A stretch of DNA of 64,000 nucleotides from an uncultured Tidjanibacter sp. (lineage in GTDB: Bacteria > Bacteroidota > Bacteroidia > Bacteroidales > Rikenellaceae): NCBI GenBank assembly GCA_944326085.1, contig CALVCL010000002.1:139867-203866 (forward strand), in the 5' to 3' direction. The translations under genes and the position numbers were made by a program. The notes below the pieces were generated by a model, which was not told the origin of the DNA, made no database searches, and was given only the letters and a program-made list of their open reading frames with translations. How positions within the stretch are numbered: the stretch's first letter is position 1; each line of letters opens with the position of its first letter. Shown one piece after another: positions 17,087-26,511 of the stretch.

Positions 17087-18649
17087 ATGAGCGAAAATCA
17101 AAACAAGGTAGCGGAACTGATAAAGTTACGTGAGGAAGCAAGGCTCGGAGGCGGACAGAAAAGGATTGACGCACAACATGCCAAAGGCAAATACACGGCA
17201 CGCGAACGTATCCAGATGCTTCTCGACGAAGGCAGTTTCGAGGAATTCGACATGTTCGTAACACATCGCTGCTACGATTTCGGCATGGAAAAAAGCCACA
17301 CTTACGGTGACGGTGTAGTTACCGGTTACGGTACGATAGACGGACGTCTGGTTTATGTATTCGCACAGGACTTTACCGTTTCGGGCGGTTCGCTTTCCAA
17401 AACAATGTCGGAAAAGATATGCAAGGTGATGGATATGGCCATGAAGGCAGGTGCACCGTGCATAGGTCTCAACGACTCGGGGGGCGCACGTATTCAGGAA
17501 GGCGTAAACGCACTGGCAGGCTATGCCGAGATTTTCCAGCGCAATGTAATGGCATCGGGTGTAATCCCGCAGATATCCGTAATCCTTGGCCCGTGCGCAG
17601 GCGGCGCAGTTTACTCGCCCGCATTGACCGACTTCACCATCATGAAGCGTGATACGAGCTACATGTTCCTCACCGGTCCTGCCGTTGTGAAGACCGTAAC
17701 CGGCGAGAACGTAACTCAGGAACAGCTCGGCGGCGCTTCGGTACACACCACCAAATCGGGTGTTGCCGACTTCGCAACCGACACCGAGGAGGAGACAATG
17801 GAACTCATCCGCAAGCTCATCTCCTACATACCGCAGAACAACATGGAGGATGCCCCGCTCGCCGTATGCACTGACTCCATCAGCCGTCTGGAAGACTCTC
17901 TCAACGAAATCATTCCAGACAGTCCGAACAAGCCGTACGATATGTATGAGGTGATACGTGCCATTGTGGATAACGGCGACTTTCTCGAAGTACACCAGTC
18001 GTTCGCAAAGAACGTCATCACATGCTTCGCACGTTTCAACGGCCAGAGCGTAGGTATCATAGCCAACCAGCCAAAATACATGGCAGGTGTACTCGACATC
18101 AACGCATCACGCAAGGCTGCACGTTTCGTACGTTTCTGCGATGCCTTCAACATCCCGCTCGTTACACTCGTGGACGTTCCAGGCTTCCTTCCCGGTACAG
18201 GCCAGGAATACGGAGGCGTTATCACCCACGGTGCAAAACTGCTCTTTGCATACTGCGAGGCTACCGTACCTAAAGTTACCGTTACCCTGCGCAAATCCTA
18301 CGGTGGCGCGTACATTGTGATGTCCTCCAAGCATATTCGCGGCGACATCAACTATGCATGGCCTACCGCAGAAATCGCCGTTATGGGTGCCAGCGGTGCA
18401 GTAGAGGTTCTCTTCGCCCGTGAAATCGCCAAGATAGAAGACCCTGCAGAAAAGGCCGCATTCATCGCAGCCAAGGAAGCCGAATACAAAGAGAAATTCT
18501 CCAACCCCTACAACGCGGCCAAGTATGGATACATCGATGATGTCATTGAACCGCGCAACACACGTTTCCGCATAATCAGGGCACTCCAGTCGCTTGCTAC
18601 AAAACGACTGACCAATCCAGCCAAGAAACACTCCAACATTCCGTTGTAG
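17087..18649 (+). CDS. mmdA: Methylmalonyl-CoA decarboxylase alpha subunit (carboxyltransferase)
   Basis: [37 protein letters not shown]; operon context. Confidence 0.92.
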
Positions 18650-18653
18650 TTGT

Positions 18654-19679
18654 ATGAGGAAACTATTTTTAATACTAATTACGATCTTGTGCGGACTTTC
18701 TGTGTCCGCACAAGGCGTTCTTAACGTAAGGATAAACGAGGTCCTCGTTAGGAACGACAGCGATATAATAGACGATTACGGACAGCGAGAATCATGGATT
18801 GAGATTTTCAATACAGGCTACGAACGCGTAGACATTGGCGGCTGTTACATCGGCATCAGATATGCCGACCGGTTTGACGGCAATGGCAACAAAGTCATAC
18901 AGAAATATTACATTCCTCGCAACAACCCCAATACGAGCATAGAACCGTTGGGATATCGACTCTTTTTCTGCGAAGGTACAGGTTCCAAGGGAACGTTCTA
19001 CACAAACTTCCGACTTGGGGATGAACCGGTCGATATGATTATTCTTTACAGTGCCAACGGCAAAGATATAATCAGCGTATTCCGATTTCCCGACACATAT
19101 ACCCCCGTACCAGACCAAGCATGGGGTATAATCGGCCATGACGAAATAGAATCCAAAGTATTCCCGAAACTTACGAGGGCGGAAAAGCGCGCATTAACCA
19201 GCTACGACGCCTACCTAGACGCAATCGCGACAGGTCTCAAATACCAACCGCGACCTATGGTGCAGTCAACACCGCTCGCCACGAACGAAATAAACGAGGA
19301 GATTTCGCATGACGAACTGTTCCGTCAGCAAGACCCCAGTGGTATTGTAATGACACTCATCGCCATGGGTGTTGTATTTCTTGCTTTAGTGGCCATTTTC
19401 ATCATCTTCAAGGTATTCGGCATGGTAATGATGAAACGCAGCAACCGCAACTCTATAAATAACGGAGGCGAGGCTGTCGTAGGCAAGCAGGCAAAGAACG
19501 GCGGCTACACAGGCGAAGAGGTGGCTGCAATAGCAATGGCACTGAAAATGTATCAGGAAGACCTCCATGTCAGGGAATCGTCCATAATTACAATCAATAA
19601 CGTCAGCAGAAAGTATTCGCCGTGGAACTCGAAGATACACGGAATTACCGAATTGCCCATGCGAAAAAGCCATAATTAA
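18654..19679 (+). CDS. OadG/MmdD-type membrane subunit fused to an N-terminal lamin-tail-like exported domain
   Basis: Signal peptide; INEVLVRN...WIEIFN...VDIGGCY (LTD-like); TM LIAMGVVFLAL; EEVAAIAMAL...SPWNSKI tail. Confidence 0.82.
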   Translation: MRKLFLILITILCGLSVSAQGVLNVRINEVLVRNDSDIIDDYGQRESWIEIFNTGYERVDIGGCYIGIRYADRFDGNGNKVIQKYYIPRNNPNTSIEPLGYRLFFCEGTGSKGTFYTNFRLGDEPVDMIILYSANGKDIISVFRFPDTYTPVPDQAWGIIGHDEIESKVFPKLTRAEKRALTSYDAYLDAIATGLKYQPRPMVQSTPLATNEINEEISHDELFRQQDPSGIVMTLIAMGVVFLALVAIFIIFKVFGMVMMKRSNRNSINNGGEAVVGKQAKNGGYTGEEVAAIAMALKMYQEDLHVRESSIITINNVSRKYSPWNSKIHGITELPMRKSHN

Positions 19680-19681
19680 CC

Positions 19682-20116
19682 ATGAAAGAATACAGCTTCA
19701 AAATAAACGGCAACACCTACAAAGTGGATGTCCAGAAAGTAGAGGGCAACATGGCTACCGTATCGGTCAATGGCACCAGCTACAATGTCGAAATAGAACA
19801 CGACATCACAGGACCGAAACCAGTAAAGCCCGTACACATATCACCTGCCACCTATCAAGCGACCCCACAGCCAGCACCTGTAAAGATTACCGCAACTGGC
19901 AACGACACGGCTCTCAAAAGCCCGCTTCCGGGGACAGTACTGGAAATCAAGGCAAAAGAGGGTGACACCGTAACAGAAGGCCAAACACTGATGATACTCG
20001 AAGCCATGAAGATGGAAAACAACATCGACGCAAACCGCAGCGGCGTGATAACACGCATCATAAAGAAGCAGGGCGACTCGGTGATGGAAGGAGATGTACT
20101 TTTAACTATCGGATAG
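19682..20116 (+). CDS. mmdC: Biotin carboxyl carrier subunit of the decarboxylase
   Basis: EAMKMEN biotinylation motif, Pro/Ala-rich linker. Confidence 0.92.
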   Translation: MKEYSFKINGNTYKVDVQKVEGNMATVSVNGTSYNVEIEHDITGPKPVKPVHISPATYQATPQPAPVKITATGNDTALKSPLPGTVLEIKAKEGDTVTEGQTLMILEAMKMENNIDANRSGVITRIIKKQGDSVMEGDVLLTIG

Positions 20117-20120
20117 TCTT

Positions 20121-21290
20121 ATGACCATGTTCTTGGAAGGCGGGTTCGGTTCCTTCATAGGACAGAACCTGCAGGAATTCTGGAGCATCACGGGTTTCGC
20201 CAATGCAACTTGGGGACATATCGTGATGATAATCGTAGGGCTTTTCTTCCTATACCTCGGCATAAAGCATAAAATGGAGCCGATGCTGCTCGTACCGATA
20301 GGGTTCGGCATACTCATAGGCAACATTCCGTTCCACGACGGCATGCAGATAGGTATCTATGAAGAAGGCTCGGTACTGAACTATCTCTATTTCGGTGTCA
20401 AGAACGGCATATACCCTCCGTTGATTTTCCTCGGCATAGGTGCCATGACCGACTTCTCTGCACTCATATCAAATCCGAAACTGATGACCATAGGCGCTGC
20501 TGCCCAACTCGGCATATTCGGAGCCTACATCATCTCGCTCGCAACCGGATTTACTGCCGCCGAAGCAGGAGCAATCGGCATCATCGGCGGTGCCGACGGC
20601 CCGACGGCAATATTCCTTTCGAGCCGACTGGCTCCCGATATGATGGGTGCAATAGCCATAGCGGCATATTCATACATGGCTCTTGTACCGGTGCTTCAGC
20701 CGTGGATTATGAAACTTTGTACAACGCCGAAAGAACGCCTCATCAGGATGAAGCCTCCGCGTCCCATATCAAAGTCCGAAAAACTGATGTTCCCGATAAT
20801 AGGGCTTCTGCTCACCTGTTTCCTCGTACCGTCCGGACTGCCGCTGCTCGGCATGCTCTTTCTCGGCAATCTGCTCAAGGAAAGCGGTGTAACAAAACGT
20901 TTGGCCAATACCGCAGGTGGTCCGCTTATCGACATCGTGACCATACTTATCGGCCTGACCGTAGGTGCATCCACGCAGGCAACAACATTTCTAACGGAAA
21001 AGTCTCTTCTCGTATTCGCCATTGGTGCGCTATCGTTCATCATCGCCACTTTCGGCGGTGTATTGTTCGTCAAATTTCTCAACCTATTCCTCAAGGAGGG
21101 CAATAAAATAAACCCTCTCATCGGCAATGCAGGCGTTTCGGCAGTGCCTGATGCCGCCCGCGTATCACAGGAAATAGGTCTCAAATATGACAAGAACAAT
21201 CACCTGCTCATGCATGCCATGGGTCCGAATGTGGCAGGCGTGATAGGCAGTGCCGTTGCTGCAGGCATACTGCTCGGTTTCCTCGGATAA
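20121..21290 (+). CDS. mmdB: Na+-translocating decarboxylase beta subunit
   Basis: IGIIGGADGPTAIF, AYSYMALVP, HAMGPNVAGVIGS. Confidence 0.95.
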   Translation: MTMFLEGGFGSFIGQNLQEFWSITGFANATWGHIVMIIVGLFFLYLGIKHKMEPMLLVPIGFGILIGNIPFHDGMQIGIYEEGSVLNYLYFGVKNGIYPPLIFLGIGAMTDFSALISNPKLMTIGAAAQLGIFGAYIISLATGFTAAEAGAIGIIGGADGPTAIFLSSRLAPDMMGAIAIAAYSYMALVPVLQPWIMKLCTTPKERLIRMKPPRPISKSEKLMFPIIGLLLTCFLVPSGLPLLGMLFLGNLLKESGVTKRLANTAGGPLIDIVTILIGLTVGASTQATTFLTEKSLLVFAIGALSFIIATFGGVLFVKFLNLFLKEGNKINPLIGNAGVSAVPDAARVSQEIGLKYDKNNHLLMHAMGPNVAGVIGSAVAAGILLGFLG

Positions 21291-21343: not shown

Positions 21344-21553
21344 ACATAATAACCATATATATTCCAAATGCATACATATTAATGCAAATACACGACATAA
21401 TGTCACCATCCGAACCCATCATCACTCTCATAAAACCCCACACGCAATGCAATATAAAGGCAATGCTGAAGCATTGTCACAAATAATGGTGATTTTTAAC
21501 CGTTATGTAAATAATAATACTTATTTTTACACCGACAAACGGGTAGTGTACCT

Positions 21554-21799
21554 ATGGGGAAACGGCGCATAAGTATCTGTTTAGGCAGTTCCTGCTTCGC
21601 CCGCGGGAACAATGTCAATATGACAGTCATCAAGAAGTTTCTCGAGGACCACGGTTTGGATGCAGATGTAACGTTCACTGGTCAACTTTGCGAAAACATG
21701 TGCAGCAAAGGCCCGATAGTGTGCATTGACGACCATATATACGAAGAGGTCAACCTTTCACTGCTTTACAAGATACTTGAGGAGGAGTTCAAATGCTAA
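21554..21799 (+). CDS. Thioredoxin-like [2Fe-2S] ferredoxin (HfsA/NuoE-like)
   Basis: C-x4-C (CLGSSC) ... C-x3-C (CENMC); overlaps the start of the next gene. Confidence 0.85.
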   Translation: MGKRRISICLGSSCFARGNNVNMTVIKKFLEDHGLDADVTFTGQLCENMCSKGPIVCIDDHIYEEVNLSLLYKILEEEFKC

Positions 21800-23523
21800 G
21801 GCCCGTATATACAGAACCCGAAAACTGCCAGGACTGCTACAAGTGCATAAGGGAGTGTCCCGTCAAGGCTATTAAGGTGGAGGACAACAAGGCTTCCATA
21901 ATAGCCGAGAGATGCGTATACTGCGGCCATTGCACGCAGGTGTGCCCTACTGGTGCCAAAAAAGTACGCGATGGTCTAACCCGCGCAAAACTCGTGTTGG
22001 CAAAATATCCCGGCAAAGTATATCTCTCGCTTGCTCCGTCATATATAAGTGAATTCACCGACTGTGAAACATCTCGCCTCATCGATGCCATAAAAGGGCT
22101 CGGATTTGCAGGTGTATCAGAAACGGCACTCGGCGCAGAACTTGTTACGGCGGCGACCGAACGTTTTCTCGAAACAGTTCCCAAGGGTGTTTACATATCC
22201 TCGGCCTGCCCTGTGGTGGTCGACTACATCCGCAAGTACGCGCCGCAACTCACCGACCACATAACACCGATAGTCTCTCCCATGGTGGCTCATGCCAAGA
22301 TGCTGAAGGAGCTGTACGGTGACGACATAAAGATTATCTTCGCAGGCCCCTGCGTAGGCAAGAAATCGGAAGCCGACTCTTTCGGCGACCTCATAGAGGT
22401 TGCCATAACATTCAAGGACCTGCGCCTGTGGCTCGAACGCGAAGGCATGGAGACTTCCGGCAGCGGCAGCAGCGGTTTCATACCATACCGTTCCGGCATG
22501 GGTTCGGTATATCCGCTTGAGGGCGGCATGCTGGCAGGCTTCAAGAGCCACGGCAGCAAAGCCTCCAGAATGGCTTTTTCCGACCTCACGTCCATTAAGG
22601 GACTTTTGTCAGGTCTCGACACGCAGCAGTACGACGACACGATATTCCTTGAACTGTTGGCCTGCAAGGGCGGATGCATCAACGGTCCCGCCGGTCTGAA
22701 CAACACGTCGCTGGCAATGAAGCACTACACCGTATCGGTGAACTGCGACGACAGCGAACCGGACGACAAGCCGGATTTCAGCGACATTGACCTGTCAATC
22801 AACTTCGTGCCCGACCCGCAGAACAGCAGGACGGAATATCCGGAGTACAAGATAAAGGAAGCTCTCGCAGCGGTGGGCAAGACTTCGGCTGCAGACGAAC
22901 TGAACTGCAGTTCGTGCGGTTACGACACCTGCCGCGACTTTGCGGTGGCACTGCTCGAAGGACGCGCCGAGGACAACATGTGCGCCTCGTACATGCGCCG
23001 TGTCGCACACGACAAGGCCACCGTACTGCTTCAAAAGATACCGGCCGGCGTAGTGCTCGTCAATGACGAGCTCAAGATTGTTGACATGAACCGTGCATTT
23101 GCGGCCAGCATGGGCGAAGACACTCTCGGTGTTTACGACGTCTTCCCGGGAATGGCCGGAGCACCGCTCAAGGCGGTCTGCCCGTTCGAGGGACTGTTCC
23201 GCACGGTGCTTGCCACGGGTGAAGAGATAAAAGAAAGACGCATAAAGGAGAACGGCCGCAGCTGGCTGCTCTCCATATACAACATACAACCGCAGAAACA
23301 GGTTTTCGGGCTGCTTCAGGACCTGCGCGAGATGAACGTGCAGAAGGATTGGATGCTCGAAAAGACACGCGAGGTTATACGCAATCACATGACCACGGTA
23401 CAGAAAGTGGCCGGTCTTCTCGGCGAGAACGCCGCCTACACCGATGCCACGCTGCGCTCAATCATGGAGGCTTACGGCAAGGAGGAGGAAGCCGAAACCG
23501 AGGACGAGTACACAATGAAATAA
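21793..23523 (+). CDS. Group C sensory [FeFe]-hydrogenase with C-terminal FeS and PAS domains (HydS/HfsB-like)
   Basis: 2x[4Fe-4S] N-terminus; H-cluster motifs SSACP, GPCVGKKSE, ELLACKGGC; CSSCGYDTC...C FeS motif; PAS-like LLQKIPAGVVLVN. Confidence 0.88.
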   Translation: MLRPVYTEPENCQDCYKCIRECPVKAIKVEDNKASIIAERCVYCGHCTQVCPTGAKKVRDGLTRAKLVLAKYPGKVYLSLAPSYISEFTDCETSRLIDAIKGLGFAGVSETALGAELVTAATERFLETVPKGVYISSACPVVVDYIRKYAPQLTDHITPIVSPMVAHAKMLKELYGDDIKIIFAGPCVGKKSEADSFGDLIEVAITFKDLRLWLEREGMETSGSGSSGFIPYRSGMGSVYPLEGGMLAGFKSHGSKASRMAFSDLTSIKGLLSGLDTQQYDDTIFLELLACKGGCINGPAGLNNTSLAMKHYTVSVNCDDSEPDDKPDFSDIDLSINFVPDPQNSRTEYPEYKIKEALAAVGKTSAADELNCSSCGYDTCRDFAVALLEGRAEDNMCASYMRRVAHDKATVLLQKIPAGVVLVNDELKIVDMNRAFAASMGEDTLGVYDVFPGMAGAPLKAVCPFEGLFRTVLATGEEIKERRIKENGRSWLLSIYNIQPQKQVFGLLQDLREMNVQKDWMLEKTREVIRNHMTTVQKVAGLLGENAAYTDATLRSIMEAYGKEEEAETEDEYTMK

Positions 23524-23535
23524 CGTCATCAGGCA

Positions 23536-24732
23536 GTGAGGGTAAACGGAGCTTTCATAGAGGTGGACTGCTTCCAGAAGAACAAGGGAGACAATATGGT
23601 CTGCGGCGATACCTTTGTATCGCACAAGTTCAAGGAAGAGGGGCGTGTGATAAGCGTCATGTCCGACGGGCTTGGCAGCGGTATCAAGGCGAGCGTACTT
23701 TCGACCATGACATCGACCATGCTCCTCAACTTCGCTATGATGAACGAGGACATCGTAGCTGCCGCGTCGACGATACTCAAGACCCTGCCGCGCGACGAAG
23801 TGAGGAAGATAAGCTACTCAACCTTCTGCATGTGCGACATAGACTGCTTCGGCAATACCCGCATCGCCGAATACGAAACACCGGCCTACTACCTGTTCCG
23901 CGAAGGCAAATTTGTTGATGTACCGAAAAAACGGATACCTGTCGAACGCGATGACATGCCCAATACGGCATTGTGGCTCTCGGAATTTCCTATGGAAAAG
24001 GAAGACAGGCTTATCTTTTTCAGCGACGGGGTAAGCCAATCAGGCATGGGACGCCGCAACATGCCGTTCGGTTGGGAAAACGGCGCACGTGAATTCATAA
24101 GGGAATGCGTTACACGCAATCCTTCGGTATCGGCAACGGAATTGGCACGTAGGATTGTTACCGAAGCTGAAAAAAACGATGGCTACTGTCTAAAGGATGA
24201 CACGAGCTGCTGCGTGATATACATGCGTAAACCGCGTAATCTGCTGGTATGCACCGGTCCTCCTTTTGATGAGAAAAACGATGCAAACCTCACGAAACTC
24301 GTTATGGAGTTTCCAGGACGCAAGATAATATGCGGAGGTACGACAGCCAACATAGTATCACGCGAAACCGGCAGGAAGATAACCCTCGACATCGATGATA
24401 TGGACATATCAGGCAATGACCTGCCGCCATCGTCACGCATGGAAGGGATTGACCTAATAACGGAAGGAATACTGACATTGAGCAAGGTGGAGCGTATTCT
24501 TTCAGAAGAAGATACCGACAACCACAACCGTCCGGACGGCCCTGCCGAGAAAATAATACGCATGCTGTACGACAGTGACAAGATAACATTTCTTGTCGGC
24601 ACACGCATAAACATAGCGCATCAGGACCCCACCCTGCCGGTGGAACTTGAGATAAGGCGCAACGTTGTGAAAAAGATAAAATATCTGTTGGAGACCAAAT
24701 GGCTCAAAGATGTTGATATTACATATATTTGA
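23536..24732 (+). CDS. SpoIIE/PP2C-type Ser/Thr phosphatase (HfsC-like)
   Basis: VCGD, VMSDGLGSG, FFSDGV and KDDTS metal-binding motifs; GTG start. Confidence 0.88.
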   Translation: MRVNGAFIEVDCFQKNKGDNMVCGDTFVSHKFKEEGRVISVMSDGLGSGIKASVLSTMTSTMLLNFAMMNEDIVAAASTILKTLPRDEVRKISYSTFCMCDIDCFGNTRIAEYETPAYYLFREGKFVDVPKKRIPVERDDMPNTALWLSEFPMEKEDRLIFFSDGVSQSGMGRRNMPFGWENGAREFIRECVTRNPSVSATELARRIVTEAEKNDGYCLKDDTSCCVIYMRKPRNLLVCTGPPFDEKNDANLTKLVMEFPGRKIICGGTTANIVSRETGRKITLDIDDMDISGNDLPPSSRMEGIDLITEGILTLSKVERILSEEDTDNHNRPDGPAEKIIRMLYDSDKITFLVGTRINIAHQDPTLPVELEIRRNVVKKIKYLLETKWLKDVDITYI

Positions 24733-24786
24733 TCTAAAGGGAAAACGACAGAGAGAAACGACTTTAAAAAAGAAACGGCTGAAAAC

Positions 24787-25041
24787 ATGGGTAAAATTGA
24801 ATTAAAAATCTGCATGGGCACAATGTGCTACGTCATGGGTGGCGCCGAACTCCGAGCTGCAGTCGACTCCCTGCCGCGCGAAGAGCGTGAAAGGATAAAC
24901 GTCAGCTACGCCCCCTGTCTGGGAAACTGCAATGACGGTGGGGAACCGCCTTATGTACAAGTCAACGGACGCACAATAGCCCGCGTAAGTTCGTCAAACC
25001 TCATACAAATCTTAAAGGAAGAACTGCACAATGCTTTATGA
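24787..25041 (+). CDS. Second thioredoxin-like [2Fe-2S] ferredoxin
   Basis: CMGTMC ... CLGNC; overlaps the hydrogenase start. Confidence 0.8.
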   Translation: MGKIELKICMGTMCYVMGGAELRAAVDSLPREERERINVSYAPCLGNCNDGGEPPYVQVNGRTIARVSSSNLIQILKEELHNAL

Positions 25042-26455
25042 CAATTATGCGATGCTCACAAAACGTGAGCTTCTGATCCGCCTTGTAAAACTGCTCAAGG
25101 AAAACAATCTCGTAGAAGGGGTAAGGTACGTACCCGCCGAAATGCGCCCGCTCGGTCAAAAGAACGTGAGCTGCTGCGTACACAAGGACAGGTACATTCT
25201 CCGTCACAAAATCATATCCATCCTCGGTTTCGACCTTCCGAGCGATGTTGACGTGGACTTGGTTCCCCTGTCCTACTACGCACAGAAATCGCTCGAAAAC
25301 AAGAACACCAAGGAGAACATCCTTTCGGTGGTGCATGAGGCCTGCAACGCCTGCATGCAGTCGCAGTATTTCATCACCAACATGTGTCGCGGCTGCGAAG
25401 CGCGTCCGTGTATGATGAACTGCCCCAAGGGTGCCATTTCATTCAAGGGAGGCAAAGCCCAGATTTCGCAGGAGGACTGCGTAGCCTGCGGCCTCTGCCA
25501 GCAGGTATGTCCCTACCATGCAATCATATACACCCCCGTACCCTGCGAAGAGGCATGCCCCGTAAAGGCAATCTCCAAGCAGCCCGACGGAAGGGAGTTC
25601 ATCGACAAGGACAAATGTATCTATTGCGGCAAGTGTATGCAGGCATGTCCCTACGGCGCAATCATGGAACGTTCCAAGATTATAGACGTACACAAGTGCA
25701 TATCCTCGCCTGACAAGAAGATTACGGCAATCGTCGCTCCGGCCATCTACGGTCAGTTCGATGCATCGCCCGCACAGATACTCGCCGCCATCAAGAAGAT
25801 AGGCTTCGATGACGTGATAGAGGTAGCTCTCGGTGCCGAGGACACCTCGCGCAACGAGTCCGCCGAACTCGAGGAACGCATGGCGGAAGGCCAGCCCTTC
25901 ATGACCACTTCCTGCTGCCCCGCATATACCGGCTGGGTAGAGAAACACGCCCCGATGCTCAAACCGTTCGTATCGGAAACCCGCAGCCCGATGGTTTATG
26001 CTGCCCGCAGGGTTAAGGCTGCCGACCCCGACATGGAGGTAGTATTCATCGGCCCGTGCCTCGCAAAACGTCACGAAGGCGACTCCGTACCCGAAGTTAA
26101 CTACGTGATGAGCTTCGAGGAACTCGGTGCATTCATGATAGCCTACGGCATTGAGGTCAAGAAAGATGGCGAAGGTGCCGAACTGAACCCCGAAGTAACC
26201 AAATACGGCCGCGGCTATGCAATGGCAGGCGGCGTACGCAACGCTATTGTTGCTGCTGTCGGCGACAAGTACACCACCATCAACATCGAAGGTCTCGACA
26301 AGAAGAACGCTGCCATGCTCAAGGCTATGGCCAAGAAGCCGGTGGCACAGTTCGTCGAGGTAATGGCCTGCGAAGGCGGCTGTGTAAACGGTCCGTGCTC
26401 GCTCGCGCCGCTGACACTCGCAAAACGTCAGATGAAGAAGGCACTCACGGAATAA
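25031..26455 (+). CDS. Monomeric group B [FeFe]-hydrogenase (probably H2-evolving)
   Basis: Multiple [4Fe-4S] motifs; P1 TSCCP, P2 GPCLAKRHE, P3 EVMACEGGC. Confidence 0.88.
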   Translation: MLYDNYAMLTKRELLIRLVKLLKENNLVEGVRYVPAEMRPLGQKNVSCCVHKDRYILRHKIISILGFDLPSDVDVDLVPLSYYAQKSLENKNTKENILSVVHEACNACMQSQYFITNMCRGCEARPCMMNCPKGAISFKGGKAQISQEDCVACGLCQQVCPYHAIIYTPVPCEEACPVKAISKQPDGREFIDKDKCIYCGKCMQACPYGAIMERSKIIDVHKCISSPDKKITAIVAPAIYGQFDASPAQILAAIKKIGFDDVIEVALGAEDTSRNESAELEERMAEGQPFMTTSCCPAYTGWVEKHAPMLKPFVSETRSPMVYAARRVKAADPDMEVVFIGPCLAKRHEGDSVPEVNYVMSFEELGAFMIAYGIEVKKDGEGAELNPEVTKYGRGYAMAGGVRNAIVAAVGDKYTTINIEGLDKKNAAMLKAMAKKPVAQFVEVMACEGGCVNGPCSLAPLTLAKRQMKKALTE

Positions 26456-26478: not shown

Positions 26479-26511
26479 AAAAAATGGAACCTGAATAGGT
26501 TCCATTTTTTT
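26479..26511. terminator. Bidirectional terminator after the hydrogenase cluster
   Basis: aaaaaatggaacct-gaat-aggttccatttttt, with A and T tracts on both sides. Confidence 0.85.

Follow-up and report, generated by a model that had tools for sequence, protein, structure and literature searches.

A putative H2-sensing hydrogenase–phosphatase trio encoded with a group B [FeFe]-hydrogenase in a Tidjanibacter genome, a copy of a known and widespread operon type

Background

The pairing of a HydS-type [FeFe]-hydrogenase with a PP2C phosphatase, and the link of this pair to a catalytic hydrogenase, is already described. The closest known example is the hydS-hydA2 cluster on plasmid pRUMAL01 of Ruminococcus albus 7 (Zheng et al. 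2014, as relayed in PMC5707799 and PMC10838669), whose hydA2 transcripts fall 90-fold when the H2 is taken up by a partner organism (PMC10838669). In Thermoanaerobacterium saccharolyticum and T. thermosaccharolyticum, hfsABCD comprises a small gene and the genes for a PAS-bearing [FeFe]-hydrogenase, a Ser phosphatase and a ferredoxin-linked hydrogenase (PMC5707799, PMC11837493), and HfsA has been described as aligning with no known protein (PMC11837493). Ethanol yield and adhE expression go up on loss of hfsA or hfsB but not of hfsC or hfsD, which suggests that the first two genes are regulatory; hydrogenase activity goes up when hfsB only is deleted and down when the whole of hfsABCD is removed (PMC5707799). 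A survey of Kiritimatiellia also found hydS adjoining a PP2C phosphatase gene (bioRxiv 10.64898/2026.10.06.756941). The present study concerns a five-gene cassette of this kind, at positions 21554-26455 of the forward strand of a 64,000-nucleotide stretch (hereafter the window; contig CALVCL010000002.1, positions 139,867 to 203,866) from an uncultured Tidjanibacter sp. of the order Bacteroidales.

Two HydS proteins, TmHydS of Thermotoga maritima and TamHydS, are low-activity enzymes and proposed sensors (PMC11376134, PMC10055695), and the interaction partners and signalling route of HydS are stated by enzymologists to be unknown (PMC13104023, PMC11376134). Group B [FeFe]-hydrogenases, the function of which has been reported in Bacteroides, are reported to drive most H2 production in the human gut, and sensory hydrogenases are listed as uncharacterised (PMC12578642). 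The locus described here is an ordinary copy of a known, widespread operon type, with nothing new in kind; what is added is a conserved orphan C-terminal domain of the phosphatase, two module types in the Bacteroidales and a whole-genome survey of possible signalling partners.

Gene content of the cassette

Five tightly packed open reading frames (ORFs) make up the cassette (Table 1), and encode in order a small [2Fe-2S] protein, a putative HydS, a PP2C/SpoIIE phosphatase, a second [2Fe-2S] protein and a group B [FeFe]-hydrogenase. They are read as an H2-sensing trio ([2Fe-2S] protein, HydS and PP2C) joined in one operon to a group B hydrogenase, most likely under the control of the trio, and its [2Fe-2S] partner; a probability of about 0.72 is assigned to this reading. 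A first-pass annotation of the window, made from the letters of the DNA, had given the same five ORFs with the same coordinates, order and coupling, all of which are borne out by the coordinates and domain matches. Its Bacteroidales host also agrees with the nearest named relatives, which are Tidjanibacter and Rikenellaceae metagenome-assembled genomes. There are overlaps of 7 nucleotides (nt) between genes 1 and 2 and of 11 nt between genes 4 and 5; gaps of 12 nt and 54 nt separate genes 2 and 3 and genes 3 and 4, respectively.

The putative sensory hydrogenase

The 576-amino-acid (aa) product of the second gene matches two Fer4 domains (residues 5-59), Fe_hyd_lg_C (136 bits, residues 75-299) and, at a C-terminal four-cysteine cluster, the PF04060 FeS motif (36.4 bits against a cut-off of 23, residues 370-397). 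The cysteines of this cluster, C372, C375, C380 and C397, are invariant in 26 homologues, and about 170 residues extend beyond the motif. The resulting domain order is that of the 'M2f' group C architecture (PMC13104023). The H-cluster motifs of HydS are SSACP, GPCVGKKSE and ELLACKGGCINGP. Alignment against the group A3 HydA of the same genome gave, for HydA, HydS and the group B enzyme respectively, TSCCP, SSACP and TSCCP at the L1 motif; MPCVAKKSE, GPCVGKKSE and GPCLAKRHE at L2; and EVMACPGGC, ELLACKGGC and EVMACEGGC at L3. HydS keeps all four cysteine ligands of the H-cluster (SSACP, GPC, ACKGGC) and has an alanine at the position of the proton-relay cysteine. At the equivalents of CpI C299, M353 and M497 it has Ala, Gly and Leu; Ala at the C299 position is found in about 43% of sensory sequences (PMC10055695). 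On these features the protein is a putative HydS-type group C (M2f) sensory [FeFe]-hydrogenase.

The first-pass annotation had called this protein a PAS-bearing [FeFe]-hydrogenase. The PAS domain was verified only weakly, through sub-threshold matches. Pfam searches with the isolated C-terminal region gave sub-threshold E-values for PAS_4 (0.0025) and PAS_8 (0.0048), and PAS_8 matches, weakly, 7 of the 26 HydS homologues. A profile search of PDB sequences returned the PAS domain of Aer2 at a sub-threshold E = 0.01, and the pattern IPAGVVLVNDELKIVDMNRAFAASMG looks by eye like the N-terminal strand pair of a PAS domain. The PAS-like region is followed by a strongly conserved helical segment, TVQKVAGLLGENAAYTDATLR (HydS residues ~515-560, window positions 23335-23475), which is a candidate output or docking helix. 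Few parts of HydS are as conserved as these ~45 residues, which lie just ahead of its acidic tail and include Thr residues that are invariant or near-invariant.

The phosphatase and its orphan C-terminal domain

The AlphaFold2 (AF2) model of the 398-aa phosphatase has a predicted local distance difference test score (pLDDT) of 93.5. A Foldseek search with the full-length model gave PP2C matches only, among them 3pu9, SpoIIE (5mqh) and RsbX (3w40), with E-values from 1e-15 to 1e-12. The metal-binding residues Asp25, 44, 164, 221 and 222 are at least 92% conserved among 80 homologues of 29-67% identity. Together, the conserved metal-binding aspartates and the PP2C fold predict that the protein is an active, non-degenerate PP2C phosphatase.

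The remainder of the protein forms an alpha/beta domain that matched no Pfam family. Modelled in isolation, this domain has a pLDDT of 93.2, and when it was compared with the PDB using Foldseek nothing better than E = 0.006 and a template modelling (TM) score of 0.43 was returned. The best of these weak fold matches are generic three-layer alpha/beta proteins (TM ≤0.43), and no STAS, GHKL kinase or receiver domain was among the top Foldseek matches listed. Conserved positions in the domain are GPP241-243, CGG266-268, TEG309-311, D348, G355 and K391, of which P243, G267, G355 and K391 are invariant in the 80 homologues. Homologues with as little as about 31% identity still have the C-terminal domain fused to PP2C, and 332 cluster representatives were found for the phosphatase at E ≤ 1e-30. 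The domain is likely to be a docking or regulatory module. Short proteins matching the C-terminal domain alone numbered 311; these are mostly on short contigs or are 'partial' calls, none has a Pfam domain, and they give no evidence that the domain has a life of its own.

The group B hydrogenase and the small [2Fe-2S] proteins

The 474-aa protein matches TIGR04105 FeFe_hydrog_B1 over residues 7-459, with 495.4 bits against a curated cut-off of 450. Its motifs TSCCP, GPCLAKRHE and EVMACEGGCVNGP keep the four ligand cysteines and the proton-relay cysteine. By its sequence this protein is a group B [FeFe]-hydrogenase, and it is predicted to be ferredoxin-dependent and H2-evolving.

Both small proteins are thioredoxin-like and match PF01257 2Fe-2S_thioredx above the cut-off of 24.8 (protein 1, 34 bits; protein 2, 37 bits), with four cysteines each, at Cys9, 14, 46 and 50 in protein 1 and at Cys8, 13, 44 and 48 in protein 2. 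In all 10 close loci the gene for protein 1 immediately precedes hydS and that for protein 2 immediately precedes the group B gene; the former placement also holds for most distant loci.

Transcription unit

When the 263 bp ahead of gene 1 were aligned with five relatives, conservation was confined to the promoter-like block. The block ends with TAnTTTTA (21522-21529), 25 nt before the ATG of gene 1. The consensus of the Bacteroidetes -7 box is TAnnTTTG, and the motif in the window resembles it. A perfect 16-bp palindrome, CAATGCTGAAGCATTG (21461-21476, 78 nt 5' of gene 1), was considered as an operator and rejected, as it is not kept in five relatives. No clear Rex-type box was seen in the upstream region on inspection by eye, no systematic scan having been made.

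The single terminator named in the first-pass annotation corresponds to a hairpin with a T-run between the group B hydrogenase gene and a convergent GSCFA gene. It folds with -16.6 kcal/mol (z = -5.4), no shuffled sequence being as good, and its stem is 8 bp when the flanking A-U pairs are left off. A consensus terminator scan missed this hairpin, which was found by reading and folding the sequence, and it is considered bidirectional because the flanking genes are convergent. With the promoter-like block, the single terminator and the spacing of the genes, the five genes look like a single operon that has a promoter of its own and shares one terminator. The GC content of the cassette is 0.51-0.55, slightly above that of neighbouring stretches.

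Table 1 Features of the cassette. Positions are those of the window; res, residues of the encoded protein.
Feature	Position	Strand	Details
Promoter-like block	21465-21535	+	upstream of gene 1; alignment of relatives
[2Fe-2S] protein 1 gene	21554-21799	+	81 aa
HydS gene	21793-23523	+	576 aa
HydS domains, in order			2x[4Fe-4S] res 5-59; H-domain res 75-304; 4-Cys cluster res 370-397; PAS-like res ~405-510; helical res ~515-560
PP2C/SpoIIE phosphatase gene	23536-24732	+	398 aa, GTG start
PP2C/SpoIIE domain	23536-24228	+	PF07228 SpoIIE, 54 bits, res 35-228
C-terminal alpha/beta domain of phosphatase	24229-24732	+	res 232-398, ~165 aa
[2Fe-2S] protein 2 gene	24787-25041	+	84 aa
Group B [FeFe]-hydrogenase gene	25031-26455	+	474 aa
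Bidirectional intrinsic terminator	26479-26509	.	A-run, 13-14 bp stem, T-run; sequence and fold

Comparison with studied systems

The likeness to hfs- and HydS-type phosphatase-linked loci that had been noticed at first pass is upheld by the R. albus 7 cluster, which has homologues of all five proteins, co-directional and tightly spaced as in the window. Identity between window and R. albus proteins is 32% for HydS, 32% for the phosphatase and 34% for the group B enzyme and the group B-like HydA2, in each case over nearly the full length, and 25-33% for the ferredoxins. R. albus HydS shares the two Fer4 domains, the H-domain and the PF04060 cluster and has a PAS domain, which is only weakly detectable in the window HydS, and the R. 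albus SpoIIE protein (389 aa) aligns with residues 16-397 of the window phosphatase, 99% of the query, so that the C-terminal domain is included. The gene order in R. albus is Rex, adhE, an APH/RIO-like phosphotransferase, two [2Fe-2S] ferredoxins, HydS, SpoIIE phosphatase and HydA2. Both ferredoxin genes thus precede hydS there, whereas in the window one precedes hydS and the other the group B gene. Rex, adhE and the APH/RIO-like phosphotransferase lie directly upstream in R. albus and none of them is at the window locus, which is flanked instead by a methylmalonyl-CoA decarboxylase operon and the GSCFA gene.

The likeness to the hfsABCD order was compared by description only. Four hfs genes stand against five in the window, where there is an extra [2Fe-2S] gene before the catalytic hydrogenase. 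The hfs locus was reportedly first described as the main H2-evolving enzyme. T. maritima HydS has the same domain order as the window protein, with N-terminal [4Fe-4S] domains, an H-domain, a C-terminal four-cysteine cluster and a PAS region (PMC10055695, PMC13104023). In both, the proton-relay cysteine is replaced by alanine (SSACP in the window; A131 in TmHydS, PMC10055695), whereas the equivalent of CpI M497 is Leu in the window HydS (ELLAC) and is taken to be S267 in TmHydS, of which an S267M variant was made (PMC10055695). The PAS region of the window HydS is only weakly detectable.

The PP2C fold and metal-binding aspartates of RsbU, RsbX and SpoIIE match those of the window phosphatase, for which SpoIIE, RsbX and an RsbU-RsbW protein are the best structural matches. 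Unlike these partner-switching phosphatases, the window protein carries its likely regulatory domain at the C-terminus, in a fold without a known match, and neither a stand-alone STAS substrate nor an RsbW/SpoIIAB-type kinase was found in its genome.

Distribution and module types in the Bacteroidales

The five-gene order is identical in all 10 related loci, in which the flanks differ. A full-length phosphatase homologue was found in 161 of 401 evenly sampled Bacteroidales genomes, about 40%, representing 104 of 236 genera; the cassette is therefore common in the order, and less of a rarity than the first-pass annotation had implied. Phosphatase identity runs from 77-85% among members of the genus through ~63-65% in two other families to mostly about 45-54% in the remainder of the order. 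Across the whole phylum only 8 of 301 genomes have a homologue, as expected if this is a module of anaerobic fermenters. In Bacteroides thetaiotaomicron, used as a control, [FeFe]-hydrogenase genes are present and a SpoIIE-family protein is absent.

Module composition was surveyed in 20 further loci from 12 genomes, across which the [2Fe-2S]-HydS-PP2C core is near-constant. Type I, the cassette as in the window, accounts for ten of these loci, nine of them complete and one without a group B gene. Type II, found in another 9 (L013, L016, L018, L020, L022, L024, L025, L027 and L030), consists of a [2Fe-2S] gene, a HydS paralogue of ~620 aa with 28-33% identity, and the phosphatase. A HydABC-type group A3 gene lies within about 3 kb in five of the nine type II loci, in three of these five in opposite orientation. 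Where a genome has two phosphatase copies, as eight do, it always combines a type I with a type II module, which suggests that each sensor serves the hydrogenase beside it, under local, module-specific control.

In the incomplete type I locus (L015, genome G193) the phosphatase accompanies the [2Fe-2S] gene and a type-I-like HydS, and about 7 kb around them hold no group B gene. At L029 (genome G026) no HydS was detected beside the phosphatase homologue. The cassette is sometimes flanked by genes for Rex, an iron-containing alcohol dehydrogenase or a sigma-54-type activator (L012-L014, L017, L019, L021, L026 and L028). The Rex and alcohol dehydrogenase flanks elsewhere in the order echo the Rex-adhE linkage of R. 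albus; none adjoins the cassette in the window.

Signalling partners and hydrogen metabolism in the whole genome

The genome of 1.69 Mb, in 14 contigs, is scored 99.95% complete. The cassette phosphatase is its one SpoIIE/PP2C protein, and its one STAS domain lies within a 597-aa ORF that is probably a transporter; no stand-alone STAS protein was found in the whole genome. Genome-wide searches gave no match over cut-off to HATPase_c_2 (GHKL anti-sigma kinase), Pkinase, PDRP, HPr kinase or APH, and no homologue of the R. albus APH/RIO-like phosphotransferase. The first-pass statement that no kinase, anti-sigma factor or phosphatase target is encoded at the locus holds and, by these family searches, extends to the whole genome. 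Canonical STAS/anti-sigma partner switching is ruled out because no such set was found in the genome, and the target of the phosphatase is thus not in the canonical partner-switching set. The output may then lie with proteins of the operon itself, with the orphan domain of the phosphatase or with a kinase that went unrecognised.

HydF, HydG and HydE are encoded intact on contig C1 (107617-111387), and H-cluster maturation is therefore available. An in-frame TGA in a weak match beside hydG was dismissed, as it lies outside the intact 349-aa HydE ORF. The same contig carries, at 242666-251281, a group A3 HydABC-type set (thioredoxin-like, NuoF-like, HydA and NuoE-like), which holds the third hydrogenase of the genome and is followed by two NfnAB-like genes. 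No sensor module lies beside this HydABC set, and the genome has a type I module only. Rex is encoded on contig C3; genes for Rex, alcohol dehydrogenase and sigma-54 activators, or distant relatives of these, are on contigs other than that of the window.

Proposed mechanism and alternatives

In the proposed mechanism, HydS would bind or slowly turn over H2 at its H-cluster and swap electrons with the adjacent [2Fe-2S] protein; by analogy, it may report H2, or the H2/ferredoxin redox state. The state of HydS would pass through its C-terminal cluster and its PAS-like and helical regions to the phosphatase, where the orphan domain probably serves for docking or regulation. Phosphatase activity would then determine how strongly the co-encoded group B hydrogenase is expressed or how active it is, and the cell could balance ferredoxin-driven H2 release against the bifurcating HydABC of contig C1 and the succinate/propionate route. 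An H2-feedback circuit of this kind is a reasonable inference from the publications on R. albus and Thermoanaerobacterium.

Several points weigh against this proposal. The PAS assignment of HydS is weak by sequence, the C-terminal cluster of TamHydS gave no response to H2 (PMC13104023), and a signalling mechanism is established for no HydS (PMC11376134, PMC13104023). The cassette itself is without a transcription factor, and no evident substrate of the phosphatase was found, since the genome has neither a stand-alone STAS protein nor a member of the Ser/Thr kinase families checked.

The five proteins might instead form one heteromeric catalytic hydrogenase complex, in which HydS would be a slow catalytic or electron-routing subunit sensing the ferredoxin/redox pool and the phosphatase a post-translational regulator. 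Overlapping or tight genes suggest stoichiometric co-production, a dedicated [2Fe-2S] protein gene precedes each hydrogenase gene and HydS keeps every H-cluster ligand. The Thermoanaerobacterium deletions point both ways, as hydrogenase activity was lowered by loss of the whole of hfsABCD but raised by loss of hfsB only (PMC5707799). The core trio, however, also occurs without a group B gene, in some cases near HydABC (L013, L015, L016, L018, L020 and others), and the characterised HydS enzymes have very low activity (PMC11376134); a five-protein complex is considered unlikely. Far less probable is a recent horizontal acquisition of the cluster from Clostridia, for which the first-pass annotation had proposed a check of distribution. 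The best-studied homologous clusters are in Firmicutes, those of R. albus and Monoglobus being on plasmids; the genes around the cassette vary among relatives, and its GC content is slightly raised here (0.51-0.55). Recent transfer is nevertheless hard to reconcile with a cassette so common in the Bacteroidales, being in 104 of the 236 genera sampled, with a phosphatase identity that drops stepwise with relatedness, with only 25-34% identity to the R. albus proteins and with two paralogous module types that coexist in the order. An ancient transfer may still have taken place.

The unit could also be self-contained, with no kinase/phosphatase cycle: the orphan domain would be a new phosphotransfer or nucleotide/phospho-ligand domain, or the PP2C would have a non-canonical substrate, for instance a phospho-His/Asp protein, a partner that phosphorylates itself or a small molecule. 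A 99.95%-complete genome with one PP2C, one STAS domain and no kinase-family match over cut-off argues for this, as does the lack of a homologue of the R. albus APH/RIO-like phosphotransferase. The C-terminal domain is in addition confidently folded and unlike solved folds, and it carries a Lys and a Gly that never vary, besides conserved Asp/Glu/Thr and a Gly-rich loop. The missing kinase families are negative evidence, however, as an unrecognised kinase may be encoded elsewhere; the weak fold matches (TM ≤0.43) permit no catalytic reading, and Firmicute relatives carry an adjacent kinase-like gene. A unit without a kinase/phosphatase cycle is considered quite improbable. It is a tentative and rather doubtful suggestion that the PP2C, without a canonical kinase, STAS or anti-sigma partner and with its C-terminal domain as a new signalling domain, acts on the hydrogenase or [2Fe-2S] partner of its own operon. 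Such local action fits the occurrence of two distinct modules, of which one sits beside group B and the other often near HydABC. If true, this would make the cassette a self-contained post-translational H2 feedback switch, in which the C-terminal domain would dock HydS, or bind or transfer a phosphoryl or nucleotide ligand.

The locus matters in that many Bacteroidales link a sensor-phosphatase unit to a group B enzyme. The reduced 1.69-Mb genome keeps the unit though the usual kinase and partner-switching components were not found in it, which narrows the location of the output; small genomes of this kind therefore offer a clean background for a target search.

Flanking genes

The upstream neighbour of the cassette is the methylmalonyl-CoA decarboxylase operon, which extends to 21290; a hairpin and T-run come after it. 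This four-gene, Na+-pumping operon (17087-21290) encodes MmdA, a 341-aa protein, the biotin carrier and the beta subunit, and is not kept beside the cassette in relatives. The 341-aa protein has OAD_gamma at residues 230-301 and is long for a gamma subunit; residues 23-142 give a sub-threshold match to a lamin-tail domain.

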